Of a stretch of DNA of 32,000 nt, positions 16,051 through 21,763 are shown piece after piece (the first letter of the stretch is position 1; each line of letters starts with the position of its first letter). Made by a program: the position numbers and the translations under genes. The DNA comes from Candidatus Thorarchaeota archaeon (GTDB taxonomy: Archaea > Asgardarchaeota > Thorarchaeia > Thorarchaeales > Thorarchaeaceae): assembly GCA_008080745.1 (NCBI GenBank), contig SHMX01000001.1:60001-92000 (forward strand), written 5' to 3'. Below the pieces are notes generated by a model, which ran no database searches, had not been told where the DNA came from, and was given only the letters and a program-made list of their open reading frames with translations.

Positions 16051-16848
16051 ATGAGGACTACAAGAACGATTCTAAGCAATTTAGCCAAAGGGAAAATCAG
16101 TGAAGAAGAGGCAGAAAAACAGTTACAGGAGCTATCTGTCGGAGTTGTTGGTGATCTTGCAAGAATTGATGGTGCTCGGGAAGGTAGAAGTGGAATACCA
16201 GAGGTGATATTCTCAGAATCAAAAAGTGCCGATGATACCGTCCAGATAGCTAAAACTATGATAGTCCAGTCGGGTTATGCACTTATGACTCGGATAAACA
16301 CAGAGAAGTTGCAGACTCTTCAGAGAGATTTATCAGATTACGAAATTGAAGCAAAAGGGTCAGGAAACCACTACACAGTTTTAGCTAGCTCACCAGACTG
16401 GTCCCCACCCGAACCTACAGGAAAAATTGCGGTGGTGACTGCAGGAACCTCAGATATCCCATTTGCATATGAGTCGATTTTAGTAGCTAAAATTATGGGT
16501 GTTACTGCTATATCCTTCTTTGACGTTGGAGTGGCAGGGATACACCGATTGGTGGAACCCATTAAACAGATTGTGAAGGAAAAAGTATCAGCAGTTGTTG
16601 TATTAGCAGGAATGGAGGGTGCATTACCAACAGTTGTTGCATCTCTAGTGAATGCACCTGTCATTGGAGTGCCAATTCCGACAGGATATGGTCATGGTGG
16701 AAAAGGAGAAACTGCTCTCGCATCCATGCTACAATCCTGTGCTCCAGGACTGGCGGTCGTAAATATCGGGAATGGGCTTGGCGCAGGTTCATTTGCGGCC
16801 TTAATTGCTAAAAGATGCGGTAAGATACAACCTGACTCAGGACGATAG
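16051..16848 (+). CDS. larB: Nickel-pincer cofactor biosynthesis protein LarB / NCAIR mutase (PurE)-related protein
   Basis: ARIDxxRxxRxGIPEVIF, VVTAGTSD, DVGVAGIHRL, AGMEGALP, VIGVPxxxGYG, LQSCAPG, VVNIxNGxGA. The true start is ATG 16051; the 15733 extension is antisense to another gene. Confidence 0.88.
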   Translation: MRTTRTILSNLAKGKISEEEAEKQLQELSVGVVGDLARIDGAREGRSGIPEVIFSESKSADDTVQIAKTMIVQSGYALMTRINTEKLQTLQRDLSDYEIEAKGSGNHYTVLASSPDWSPPEPTGKIAVVTAGTSDIPFAYESILVAKIMGVTAISFFDVGVAGIHRLVEPIKQIVKEKVSAVVVLAGMEGALPTVVASLVNAPVIGVPIPTGYGHGGKGETALASMLQSCAPGLAVVNIGNGLGAGSFAALIAKRCGKIQPDSGR

Positions 16849-17970
16849 AATAGTATTTGCAATATCAAGATACACATCTACGGACTGATACATTTGATCA
16901 AGACGGATGAATTCATCTGGTTGGTGTGCTTGTTCAATGGAACCAGGACCACAAATAACATTGATGATACCGACTTTTGGTTGAAGTACTGAACAGTCAG
17001 TTCCATAGGTAGCAGCAGAGGGCTCTGGTCTTCTTCCCGTGACTTTTTCTACGGCATCAAGAGTTGCTCCTACAATGGGACTATCAACGGGTGTTGAAAC
17101 TGCAGGTTTTCCATGTATATACTGAAGATCTACAAAATCAGCTAGGCCTGCTTCAATGAATCTCTCACGAATCTGTTGCATTAACCCTTCTGTTGTTTGT
17201 CCCTTAACAATTCGCATATCAAGATGAACCTCGCAATGATCAGGAACAACATTAATTTTGATACCTCCGTTTATCATACCAACATTTAGAGTAGGAACAC
17301 CAAGTAAATTATCTTCTTCAAAAGGAAATGCTTTACGAGTTATGCTTGCAAGTGCTTTGACAGCTAGGGCAATCGCATTAATCCCCTCTTCAGGTCTTGA
17401 GCCGTGAGCAGACTTGCCTTGTGCGACTATTTTAGACCAAAACATTCCTTTTTCTCCAACAAGAACATCAAGACCAGTAGGTTCAGCACAAACGCCATAT
17501 TTTACGTCAGATAGCAATCCACTTTTTGCAACTTCTTCTGCTCCAGAACAGCCACTCTCCTCATCGGAGGTAGCGAGCATCATAAGAGGCACTTTTCTTT
17601 TTGATTCCTTATAGAGTATCATTGTTTCAGTAAGAGCGGTTACAGGACCTTTCATGTCACAGGTTCCTCTACCATACATTTTACCTCCATCAATCGCTCC
17701 AGCAAAAGGAGGATAGGTCCAGTTTTCCTTCGGCCCAGCTGGAACCGTATCCATGTGCCCATGAATCACAAGAGGTCCCACTTCATCCTCATGAGTTGAA
17801 AAAATGAGGTTAGGCCGTTCGGATGGACCAACAGATCTACAATTAATCCCATAATCCTCCAAATGTCGTTTCAAGACCTTTGCTACTTCTTCTTCTCGAC
17901 CGGGAGGGCTCTCAGAATTTGTTTGCACCAGAGTCTTGAGAAGAGTCATCATTCGCTTTTGATCGGTCAT
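16837..17970 (-). CDS. M20 family metallopeptidase/deacylase (ArgE/DapE/LysK-like)
   Basis: HGHMDTV, YGRGTCDMKG, DEESG, EPT, GKSAHGS, GIKINVVPD, AHQPDE. Its 3' end overlaps convergent larB by 12 bp. Confidence 0.92.
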   Translation of the reverse strand: MTDQKRMMTLLKTLVQTNSESPPGREEEVAKVLKRHLEDYGINCRSVGPSERPNLIFSTHEDEVGPLVIHGHMDTVPAGPKENWTYPPFAGAIDGGKMYGRGTCDMKGPVTALTETMILYKESKRKVPLMMLATSDEESGCSGAEEVAKSGLLSDVKYGVCAEPTGLDVLVGEKGMFWSKIVAQGKSAHGSRPEEGINAIALAVKALASITRKAFPFEEDNLLGVPTLNVGMINGGIKINVVPDHCEVHLDMRIVKGQTTEGLMQQIRERFIEAGLADFVDLQYIHGKPAVSTPVDSPIVGATLDAVEKVTGRRPEPSAATYGTDCSVLQPKVGIINVICGPGSIEQAHQPDEFIRLDQMYQSVDVYLDIANTILSS

Positions 17971-18035: not shown

Positions 18036-18052
18036 ATGAGTATGATACTCAT
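18036..18052. promoter_or_regulatory. Perfect 17-bp palindrome, candidate transcription-factor operator
   Basis: ATGAGTAT-G-ATACTCAT directly abuts the 5' stem of the C/D sRNA and lies 66-82 nt upstream of the divergent M20 gene. Confidence 0.55.
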
Positions 18053-18124
18053 GCAGGCCAATGATGTTATTACCCCTGTCTGACCTGAAATGGAATGATT
18101 ACTCAAGAGCAGACTGAGGCCTGC
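18053..18124 (+). ncRNA. Box C/D methylation-guide sRNA
   Basis: Terminal stem GCAGGCC (18053-59)/GGCCTGC (18118-24); C box ATGATGT (18061-67); 12-nt guide TATTACCCCTGT; D' box CTGA (18080-83); C' box ATGATTA (18095-101); 12-nt guide CTCAAGAGCAGA; D box CTGA (18114-17). Order and spacing are canonical for archaeal C/D sRNAs. Confidence 0.85.
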
Positions 18125-18881: not shown

Positions 18882-20357
18882 TCAAGGACGATACGCAAAG
18901 GGGTGTCTAGCAGACTCCTTTCTGAGTTTTACTTCAGAGATACCTTCTCTCCTCTCAATTGCTCGTCTAATTGCAAAACGGACAGCACGGAAGTTGTTTA
19001 TATGTACCCTTTTTGGATTCACAGCATTTGGATGAACAAATACATTTGCTGCAATCACTATGTCCTTGAGAAGTTCTTCAGGAAGAATATGATCTGTGAC
19101 TGTACGATTCACTGCATCAACAACAGCTTGTTGGGCAACGTTGTAGACCATATCTTTGTGTTTCTCGTGAGTAATGGTCACAGTGGGCGCAAATATTGTA
19201 AGTGGTTCAAGGCCGCTGATAATATTTGAACTGTGATATCCTTCTACAGTTTTCCCAGCATTCTCTACTGCTGTTTTGAGTGGCCCGTCTCGTAAACCCA
19301 AGACAAGATCAACATGTGCTACCTCTTGCCCCCCACCACATAAAGCCTCTCCGTGAAGGAATTCAAGACCAGTAATGGTTTCTGGAACCATTCCATGAGC
19401 CTTCGGATAACTTTCTGCAACAAGGATATTGTCACCCTTCTGGAATTTCACAGGACCCCGTTTTATCAGAAGAAGATCTTCCAGACAAGTACGGATTTCG
19501 TCAATATCATCATAAGAAGGTACATCACCTATCAGCAGAGGTTGTCTTGGCGCTCCTACAGTAATTCCCATCATATTGAGGGCAGCTTTGACAATAGCAC
19601 CTCCACCGCGATTAACAATCAATCTCACAGTCTTCTGAATGCTTCTTTGAATAATGAGAGCCTCATTAAGATCGCCTTGAGCTAATTGTGCTTGCATTTT
19701 GATATAGCGGTCAGGAAAAATGTTCGCACTTGCCAGAATAGCACCATCGCACCCGGTAGCAAATGCAGGTAGGGCAACTTCATCATGACCAATTACAACT
19801 TGGAATTCCTCTGGTCTTCGAACAAGAATAGTTGTCAGGTTTACTAAATTACCACTGGAGTCTTTCATTCCAATGATTCCATCCACCTCTCTTAATCCAT
19901 CAATAAGCTTCCAATCCAGCATTACACCCGTTACCTGAGGAATATTATAGAGGAATATTGGCAATTCACAGGCTCGAGCTATCTTCTCATAATGCTCAAA
20001 AATCTCCTTATTCGTAGGTTTGAGGAAATAGGGAGAAACTACTAGAGCTGCATCTGCACCAAATTCAGCCGCACGATGGGTGATTTTAATCGCGTCGTTT
20101 GTGTAGGCAGCTCCAGTCCCTGCTAAAACAGGTACTCGTCCTTTTGCAGCATCACAAGCAATTTTGATTGCCTCAACTTTTTCTTCAAAACGCATACTCG
20201 TGAATTCACCAGTTGTGCCACAAGGCACAATTCCAGTCGCACCTGCTTTAATTACGTAATCAATAAGCGCACGATATTGATCCTCATTAACACCATCCTC
20301 ATCAAAGGGGGTTACAAGTGCTGGGAAAACACCTTTGAATTTAAAATCCTTTGCCAT
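18882..20357 (-). CDS. DapA-family class I aldolase fused to a formaldehyde-activating enzyme (Fae) domain, paralog B
   Basis: PALVTPF, CGTTGEF, LYNIP, GMKDSS (Schiff-base Lys). C-terminal GEALCGGGQEVAHVDL...VFVHP...NNFRAVRFAIRRA aligns with Fae (GEALVGDGNEVAHIDL...VFIHW...YNYEATKLSIQRA). ATG 20357 follows GGAGGT. Confidence 0.88.
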   Translation of the reverse strand: MAKDFKFKGVFPALVTPFDEDGVNEDQYRALIDYVIKAGATGIVPCGTTGEFTSMRFEEKVEAIKIACDAAKGRVPVLAGTGAAYTNDAIKITHRAAEFGADAALVVSPYFLKPTNKEIFEHYEKIARACELPIFLYNIPQVTGVMLDWKLIDGLREVDGIIGMKDSSGNLVNLTTILVRRPEEFQVVIGHDEVALPAFATGCDGAILASANIFPDRYIKMQAQLAQGDLNEALIIQRSIQKTVRLIVNRGGGAIVKAALNMMGITVGAPRQPLLIGDVPSYDDIDEIRTCLEDLLLIKRGPVKFQKGDNILVAESYPKAHGMVPETITGLEFLHGEALCGGGQEVAHVDLVLGLRDGPLKTAVENAGKTVEGYHSSNIISGLEPLTIFAPTVTITHEKHKDMVYNVAQQAVVDAVNRTVTDHILPEELLKDIVIAANVFVHPNAVNPKRVHINNFRAVRFAIRRAIERREGISEVKLRKESARHPFAYRP

Positions 20358-20362
20358 TGAAT

Positions 20363-21763
20363 TTACCTCCATATCTCTCCTAGAGCTACAGAAACAGCTT
20401 CTTCTGCTGCATGAGTTATCGCTCTTCGATCCCGAGAGTTAAGGTCGACATCCATAGCCATAATCATCACGTATTTCTCAATTTTTTCTTCAGGAATCTT
20501 GTTTGACTTCAATAATTCTGAAACCGCCTTTGCCGCTCCAGACTGAACAGGTCCATAGAATAAGGAGGCTTGACGCATTGAACGAATCTGTCTCATGGGT
20601 AGCATCAAGCTGCTTGGCCGTACTCGGAGATTGGGTTCAAGAATAATCGATAATGCCTCATAACCAATCTTTGGAGTGGTTAGCAGTCTGACAAATACTT
20701 CTCCTAGAGGACCGTCAGCTAGACCAGAAATCACGCTTGCGGATACAATATCGTTTGCACCATTACCAATACCCATATCGCCCAACGAATCCTTAGCAAC
20801 ACCATAATCTGATACGAGGTCTCTCATATCAACCGCTTTTACTAAATCTGGATGTTGCAGGGGTTTAATGAGTTTCAGTTTCTCAAGTTCAATCCGAACT
20901 TCTTCTCGAAGTTCACGGGTAAGAGTACCACCAGTATTTAGTGGCATTCGATCCCGCCCAGCATTGATACCCATCATCCTCAAAGCTGCCTTTGCAGGTG
21001 GGGCACCGCCATTTCGAGTGATAATTCTTGAAAGAGTTTGAACAGAATGCTGTAATTGCATTGCCTCGTCAAATTTCCCTTTTTTGACCTTATCCATGAT
21101 ATCCAACCAGATGTGGGGGATAACATTTGCCGATGCAAGAATAGCTGCACTGGCTCCTGCGGCGATGGCGGATAAGAAGCACTCATCATGACCAATCAAT
21201 ACAGGAATCTTATTTTTGACCTTTTCAATTAGATCCAGTGTATGGGGAATGTTTCCACTACTGTCTTTTATTCCCACAACATTATCAACTTCAACAAGAT
21301 CCTCAACAAGTGAGCTATTAAGAACACCCAAGGTACATTGTGGAATGTTGTAGAGAATAATGGGAAGATCACTCTTTCTAGCTACGGTCTCATAATGTTC
21401 ATAGTAGCCTTTGTCAGAGGGACGCAAATAGAAGGGAGAAATGACCAGGGCTGCATCACATCCAATGTCTGCAGCAAATTTCGTCAGCGCAACTGTTGCC
21501 TTGGTACTATTTTGTCCAGTTCCTGCAACTATGGGAACTCTGCCATCAACGAATTCCACTGCAAGTTTTAGCAGTTTCTTTCGTTCTTCAGTTCGCATGT
21601 AGACGAATTCACCAGTTGTTCCAGCTGGAACAACACCTGTCGCACCATTTTCAATGGTGTAATCGATTACTTCTCTGAAACCTTCTTCCATGATGTCGCC
21701 GTCTTTGGTGAAAGGTGTCACCAGTGCGGGCATCACTCCTTTAGGAATGAATTTCTTTGACAT
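20363..21763 (-). CDS. DapA-family class I aldolase fused to a Fae-like domain, paralog A
   Basis: PALVTPF, AGTTGEF, PFY, LYNIP, GIKDSS. C-terminal GPLGEVF...EPNLRVRPSSLM...RQASLFYGPVQSGAAKAV aligns with Fae (PNLPCKPNTLM...RQAVQMFGPAQHGVAMAV). Confidence 0.88.
   Translation of the reverse strand: MSKKFIPKGVMPALVTPFTKDGDIMEEGFREVIDYTIENGATGVVPAGTTGEFVYMRTEERKKLLKLAVEFVDGRVPIVAGTGQNSTKATVALTKFAADIGCDAALVISPFYLRPSDKGYYEHYETVARKSDLPIILYNIPQCTLGVLNSSLVEDLVEVDNVVGIKDSSGNIPHTLDLIEKVKNKIPVLIGHDECFLSAIAAGASAAILASANVIPHIWLDIMDKVKKGKFDEAMQLQHSVQTLSRIITRNGGAPPAKAALRMMGINAGRDRMPLNTGGTLTRELREEVRIELEKLKLIKPLQHPDLVKAVDMRDLVSDYGVAKDSLGDMGIGNGANDIVSASVISGLADGPLGEVFVRLLTTPKIGYEALSIILEPNLRVRPSSLMLPMRQIRSMRQASLFYGPVQSGAAKAVSELLKSNKIPEEKIEKYVMIMAMDVDLNSRDRRAITHAAEEAVSVALGEIWR

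Follow-up and report, generated by a model that had tools for sequence, protein, structure and literature searches.

The window, by which is meant the whole 32,000-nt stretch of Thorarchaeota DNA analysed here, contains on its forward strand a box C/D sRNA gene of about 72 nt (18053–18124), which is very probably a canonical archaeal double-guide RNA predicted to direct 2′-O-methylation of two residues of the host 23S rRNA, G2446 and C2510 (E. coli numbering, taken from the alignment in PMC4644070). The gene was recognised from its sequence, its folded stem and its covariance-model orthologues; its anatomy, complementarity, conservation and covariation, and the presence in the host of genes for the partner proteins, are matters of observation. 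The RNA belongs to an old family found across several Asgard classes and matched by sR7 of Methanopyrus kandleri. A preliminary description of this DNA had noticed the resemblance of the D′ guide to that of the eukaryotic snoRNA snR38; this observation is confirmed, and its interpretation is supported and extended.

Archaeal C/D sRNAs are defined as RNAs of 50–70 nt with boxes C, D′, C′ and D and guides of 10–12 nt (PMC7994747). In the window RNA the four boxes occur in that order, both guides are 12 nt long, and complementarity to host rRNA spans the fifth base before both D and D′. A perfect 7-bp terminal stem, seen in the sequence and the fold, is formed by a 5′ arm, GCAGGCC (18053–18059), and a 3′ arm, GGCCTGC (18118–18124), the latter followed by a T-rich run. 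Between the arms, and all on the forward strand, lie box C, ATGATGT (18061–18067; consensus RUGAUGA), whose TGA core is invariant across the orthologues; the D′ guide, TATTACCCCTGT (18068–18079), identified by target scan, duplex energy and covariation; box D′, CTGA (18080–18083), with an invariant GA; an 11-nt D′/C′ linker, the K-loop spacer (18084–18094), which is variable among orthologues; box C′, ATGATTA (18095–18101), with an invariant ATGA; the D guide, CTCAAGAGCAGA (18102–18113), identified by target scan and a lineage-specific pair described below; and box D, CTGA (18114–18117), evident from the sequence and the orthologues. The preliminary description had placed the D′ guide and its box correctly, although the range it gave, 18066–18083, also covered the final two bases of box C. 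A protein-coding reading of 18053–18124 was rejected, since the overlapping open reading frames are short and incidental and the orthologues keep boxes and guides and no frame.

The sRNA gene occupies the intergenic space ahead of a divergent gene on the reverse strand (16837–17970) encoding an ArgE/DapE-family deacylase (TIGR01910, above cut-off), which is a synteny marker with no part in the function of the RNA. Relatives of the neighbouring protein carry the label Thorarchaeota, which places the host among the Asgard archaea. The two divergent genes are also separated by a perfect inverted repeat of 8 bp around a 1-nt centre, ATGAGTAT-G-ATACTCAT (18036–18052), which directly precedes the 5′ stem of the RNA, was not seen in a congeneric genome and is possibly the site of a regulator. 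A promoter scan returned sigma-70-type matches only, at chance level and from a model that is uninformative for an archaeon, and an Rfam scan of the window gave no family at cut-off, SCARNA18, snoR38, sR9 and GlsR6 appearing as sub-threshold box matches. Elsewhere in the window, on the reverse strand at 18882–21763, two tandem genes each encode a DapA-like aldolase fused to a formaldehyde-activating-enzyme-like domain.

The mechanism of C/D-guided methylation is textbook knowledge. The host encodes fibrillarin in a gene adjoining that of Nop5, together with L7Ae-family proteins, represented by two matches over the cut-off of PF01248, a model which also covers L30e. On the window RNA, L7Ae would bind the C/D kink-turn and the C′/D′ K-loop, after which Nop5 and fibrillarin would assemble; the D′ guide would then pair with 2443–2451 of the pre-23S rRNA, leading to 2′-O-methylation of G2446, and the D guide with 2509–2516, leading to methylation of C2510. 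Both riboses are in the peptidyl-transferase centre and would be methylated during folding of the 23S rRNA. This pathway of L7Ae, Nop5 and fibrillarin is established for C/D RNPs (PMC7994747); for the window RNA, we infer expression, RNP assembly and methylation from the sequence.

The host genome has a single 23S gene (C9:71161–74266) and a single 16S gene, and within the 23S rRNA the best Watson–Crick runs of the two guides fall at the G2446 and C2510 sites. The D′ target reads CCAGGGGTAACAG (G000:C9), and 18070–18078 form nine contiguous Watson–Crick pairs with 2451–2443, in which C18075, at D′+5, faces G2446 (G000:C9:73731), the equivalent of yeast Gm2815, the snR38 site. The preliminary description had compared the guide with the eukaryotic antisense, TGTTATCCCTGT, finding agreement at 10 of 12 positions, including the six bases adjoining D′, and had applied the D+5 rule to the same G; both points hold. 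It had also feared two mismatches with the rRNA. One of these is a Watson–Crick pair, because position 2448 is G in the host as against A in eukaryotes, and for the same reason the guide carries C at the position of the U in snR38; the other persists, A18069 facing C2452 at the periphery of the duplex, where most orthologues have G in the guide. The duplex energy is −15.5 kcal/mol for the host site, compared with −10.2 kcal/mol for a eukaryote-type site. When the D′ guide was shuffled, a run of at least nine pairs at the named snR38 site of the 23S rRNA arose in 17 of 200,000 trials. A 9-bp match anywhere in host rRNA and tRNA was reached by 16% of shuffles and is weak alone, so that the case is made by the double match, the conservation and the covariation.

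The D guide forms eight contiguous pairs, plus two more, with host 23S 2506–2516. In this duplex G18109 (D+5) faces C2510 (G000:C9:73825), T18103 pairs with a genus-specific A2516, and at position 3 there is a mismatch, A opposite G2508, common to most Thorarchaeota. Taken alone against all host rRNA and tRNA, the match is reached by 36% of shuffles; shuffled D′ and D guides both matched within 100 nt in three of 1,500 trials. In the Arabidopsis and human tables the site of human C4426, guided by U49, and that of yeast Gm2815, guided by snR38, are 64 nt apart: Arabidopsis Gm2816 (snoR38Y) corresponds to human Gm4392 (old 4362) and yeast Gm2815, and Arabidopsis Cm2880 (U49) to human Cm4456 (old 4426) (PMC8583080, PMC3511168). 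The same offset is found in Dictyostelium (Gm3148/Cm3212) and Plasmodium (3176/3240) (PMC8817022, PMC2656528). Relatives show the 64-nt spacing for the predicted archaeal sites as well; in the host it is 94 nt, owing to a 30-nt insertion between the two sites in the 23S gene. From the matching sites and the shared offset it follows that a single RNA is predicted to aim at the sites of both snR38 and U49. The insertion itself (23S position ~2603–2632; L001 / G000:C9) is hairpin-like, lies in the loop region of helix 89, and is perhaps a small intron or an expansion.

A covariance model built from 14 Thorarchaeota copies gave strong matches in 23 of the 26 genomes of the family and in the one genome of the order's other family; a 24th match, in G131, is to a paralogue whose D′ guide differs. 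Of 15 Thorarchaeota loci, 10 have the RNA upstream of the argE orthologue, and it is close to argE in the other family too. The preliminary description had proposed a check on orthologues, and in these the core TTACCCCTG of the D′ guide is kept. A wider survey, using a box-plus-guide pattern over 400 Asgard genomes followed by inspection of the loci and their assignment to lineages through neighbouring proteins, revealed the same double-guide layout in Odinarchaeum and 13 Hodarchaeum genomes. In the Atabeyarchaeum version the D guide is shifted by two bases and lands on G2508, and 11 Heimdallarchaeaceae genomes join the G2446 guide to other partner guides. By the same pattern search, the G2446 guide was not above control level in 135 genomes of a Lokiarchaeota-type family; the phylum-wide pattern for the C2510 guide is too loose, its matches being at control level in every genome.

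Across these lineages the guides change together with the host 23S at positions 2444, 2448, 2510, 2515 and 2516, in a handful of lineage-level events, related genomes not being independent observations. Positions 2444/2448 are A/G, with U/C in the guide, in Thorarchaeota and Heimdallarchaeaceae, and G/A, with C/U in the guide, in Hodarchaeum (where one 23S copy of each site was checked), Odinarchaeum and Atabeyarchaeum. At 2515–2516 the host genus has GA, facing TC in the guide, and the other members of its family have GG, facing CC; the sister family and Hodarchaeum have CC, with a guide G at −10. In Odinarchaeum U2510 is faced by A at D+5. Guides and 23S sequences swapped across lineages break at the covarying positions and cognate pairs fit, and the +5 register is kept in nearly all orthologues. 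Exceptions to the covariation include a wobble in G020 and G029, and the single G126 23S copy, which mismatches the D guide at 2509.

Some other features of these genomes were recorded. About 130 nt from the orthologue, a tandem paralogue (L063:1629–1699 and L065:1174–1244, in G006 and G162; also L099 and L103) combines the retained G2446 guide with a new D guide matching the A-loop (~U2555), and other genomes join that D guide to a different D′ guide; the tandem paralogues show guide-module shuffling in the act. Heimdallarchaeaceae loci L121, L125, L127 and L128 pair the G2446 guide at D′ with a D guide for ~C2498, which are the two guides of Ignicoccus sR414 in swapped order. Introns of about 150–800 nt occur in at least eight relatives at 2449–2451 of the 23S gene, a part of the catalytic loop that falls within the D′ target (Thorarchaeota and Heimdallarchaeaceae genes L092, L093, L094, L096, L160, L161, L166 and L168), and full pairing in these organisms should therefore need spliced RNA. 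The 16S gene (L002 / G000:C2:589938–592348) spans 2.4 kb, some 900 nt beyond the model, which implies introns. Contigs C14, C15, C17, C18 and C19 of G000 have a GC content of 62–65%, against about 41% elsewhere, and are likely bin contamination; that of the 23S contig is host-like.

Outside the Asgard archaea, the comparison covered the seven species of PMC4644070. The sR7 of M. kandleri is a double guide with the same target order, G2720 (= G2446) at D′ and C2784 (= C2510) at D (PMC4644070 supplement). It differs in coming from a euryarchaeote and in having guides that fit its own 23S (G2444, A2448, C2514–C2515); its targets are likewise predicted, and the accessible part of PMC4644070 contains no link between sR7 and eukaryotic snoRNAs. 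Predicted G2446 guides also occur at D′ in Methanococcus maripaludis sR101 and at D in Ignicoccus hospitalis sR414, and I. hospitalis sR473 has a predicted C2510 guide at D (PMC4644070), these RNAs differing from the window RNA in that the guides for the two targets occur on separate RNAs or alongside other guides. Because these four RNAs are predicted to serve the same targets, the guide is not peculiar to Asgard archaea and eukaryotes, and a reading in which it was exclusive to the two was rejected, sR7 having both predicted targets. The proposal in the preliminary description of a possible archaeal counterpart of snR38 is supported as regards the equivalent target and the position of the guide at D′. 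It was incomplete in two respects: the RNA has a second guide, directed at the U49 site, and guides to the same G had already been predicted outside the Asgard archaea.

Among eukaryotic RNAs, the snR38/SNORD1/snoR38Y family (RF00213) and GlsR6 (RF02475) have their consensus guide at D′ with D′+5 on the equivalent G. The window RNA resembles them in that its predicted D′+5 falls on the G equivalent to yeast 25S G2815 and its guide, which shares 10 of 12 bases with that of snR38, adjoins box D′ as in the RF00213 consensus, to which Plasmodium PFS7 is an exception. In contrast, snR38 is a single guide, longer and usually intronic, and there is no alignable sequence outside the boxes and guide between it and RNAs of the window family. 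Against RF00213 the window RNA scored 29.7 bits (E 0.53), and its Hodarchaeum and Odinarchaeum orthologues 20–25 bits, below the gathering score of 45 bits. U49/SNORD49 (RF00277), Dictyostelium CD38 and Plasmodium PFS9 guide the equivalent of C2510, as the window RNA is predicted to do, with its D+5 on the equivalent of human 28S C4426; the guide is at D′ in the U49 of vertebrates and Plasmodium, and at D in the archaeal family. Against RF00277 the window RNA gave no match up to E 5 and a Hodarchaeum orthologue 16.8 bits, short of the gathering score of 37. As the thresholds of both families were missed, the RNA is filed in neither, and is described here as an archaeal C/D sRNA predicted to work like snR38 plus U49.

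Considering how this likeness arose, Hoeppner and Poole placed snR38 in LECA, reported no archaeal counterpart for snR38 or U49, and regarded homology and convergence as indistinguishable for such short RNAs (PMC3511168), a limit that applies to the Asgard family too. Common descent would add to the double-guide explanation given above and would not replace it: an archaeal double guide, or two modules, would be ancestral to snR38 and U49, with the jobs split after duplication. We regard this as a serious possibility, a little short of probable. Across eukaryotic supergroups, separate snoRNAs direct methylation of the two sites (PMC8583080, PMC3511168, PMC8817022, PMC2656528), the G2446 guide is at D′ in the Asgard family, Rfam snoR38, the Giardia GlsR6 consensus and Neurospora CD23, and the family is present in Hodarchaeum, whose D guide, GAAGAGCCGT, is the same as that of Dictyostelium CD38, including the unpaired last U. 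However, a shared target forces guides to be alike, the boxes are generic and nothing else aligns, as the 29.7 bits against 45 reflect. Guide positions also disagree, the snR38 guide of Plasmodium being at D and the C2510 guide being at D′ in U49 and at D in the archaeal family, and archaeal modules are freely shuffled, as in Ignicoccus sR414/sR473, the Heimdallarchaeaceae and the tandem paralogues. No eukaryotic RNA with both guides was found, Neurospora, Plasmodium, Dictyostelium, Arabidopsis and human using separate RNAs.

One further point in favour of common descent comes from SNORD49. In the RF00277 consensus the C2510 guide is at D′, and box D is preceded by a poorly conserved stretch of which 9 nt pair with the snR38 site (eight Watson–Crick pairs and one GU), placing D+5 on the same G as snR38; the end of human SNORD49A, read from a published primer, makes eight of nine pairs with that site. 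Such a match was reached by chance at a frequency of 2.5e-5 in random 12-mers and 1e-4 in shuffles for the consensus, and of 4e-4 and 1.4e-3, respectively, for human SNORD49A, figures that concern a resemblance noticed before testing. The arrangement in SNORD49 resembles that of the archaeal double guide with the order permuted, which we treat as a lead. PMC3116282 includes U49 in its list of snoRNAs that have conserved extra pairing with rRNA, and neither PMC4914119 nor PMC5027482 was found to name a second SNORD49 target. Against the lead, Plasmodium U49 lacks such a stretch, the other target of plant U49 is Cm1510 (PMC3511168), and the reciprocal test on a second guide in snR38 was negative.

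Convergence, in which archaea and eukaryotes would independently target favoured riboses of the peptidyl-transferase centre and the likeness to snR38 would reflect the target only, is also possible, though we hold it tentatively. Some 17% of the sites predicted in archaea are shared between species, and convergence is thought to account for many of them (PMC4644070). The neighbouring positions 2508/2509 are targeted by the Atabeyarchaeum RNA, Sac sR7, Neq sR4 and Mka sR45, which marks the helix as a hot spot, and the control-level result for the G2446 guide in the Lokiarchaeota-type genomes points the same way. Convergence accords less well with the same ordered target pair in Thorarchaeota, Hodarchaeum, Odinarchaeum and Methanopyrus, or with a G2446 guide even in M. 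maripaludis, which has very few sRNAs; together these indicate great age within the archaea. The most specific form of common descent, in which one archaeal double guide running from Methanopyrus to Thorarchaeota, Odinarchaeum and Hodarchaeum was the direct ancestor of the snR38 and U49 of LECA, vertebrate SNORD49 keeping a permuted remnant or a working second guide for the snR38 site, seems rather unlikely. Shared descent with snR38 in general is plausible but unproven.

With regard to function, it is improbable that the RNA serves mainly as a folding chaperone that bridges helices 74 and 90, at least one of its guides being non-methylating. The host duplexes are short, at 9 bp for D′ and with a mismatch for D, below the textbook 10–12 bp, which counts against the double methylation guide; the conserved mismatch near box D and the Atabeyarchaeum D guide that has slid to G2508 would suit a chaperone, and Dennis et al. 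consider chaperone roles as well as defective guides (PMC4644070). Yet the +5 register is nearly always kept, and the compensatory change in Odinarchaeum is at the target base itself, which argues for the methylation guide. The preliminary description had held another target for the D′ guide to be equally possible, which now appears very improbable: a second 23S site, at host gene position 903, does pair with it (eight Watson–Crick pairs and one GU, −13.9 kcal/mol) and may be a minor second target, but the perfect complement ACAGGGGTAATAA occurs in the genome only on the opposite strand of the gene itself, the host 16S and tRNAs gave no run above 8, the scan of host rRNA and tRNA found no better-pairing site, and the guide tracks the changes at 2444 and 2448 across lineages.

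The window RNA, read as a double methylation guide, is an uncatalogued, conserved Asgard member of a well-known RNA class, and its predicted targets are unusually well supported. Searches for Asgard C/D sRNAs, snR38 in archaea and Asgard ribosome modifications, mostly among non-subscription papers, returned no relevant literature, and the same target pair had already been tabulated for Methanopyrus sR7 (PMC4644070). The finding addresses the archaeal origin of any single eukaryotic snoRNA family, a question for which Hoeppner and Poole had one reasonable archaeal case, sR12/snR70 (PMC3511168). Two sites of LECA age gain an archaeal guide that occurs in the lineage regarded as closest to eukaryotes, with compensatory changes that support the predicted targets. 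The family is a good candidate for the archaeal forerunner of snR38 and U49, and for the ribosomes of Asgard archaea it makes precise and testable predictions, namely Gm2446 and Cm/Um2510.
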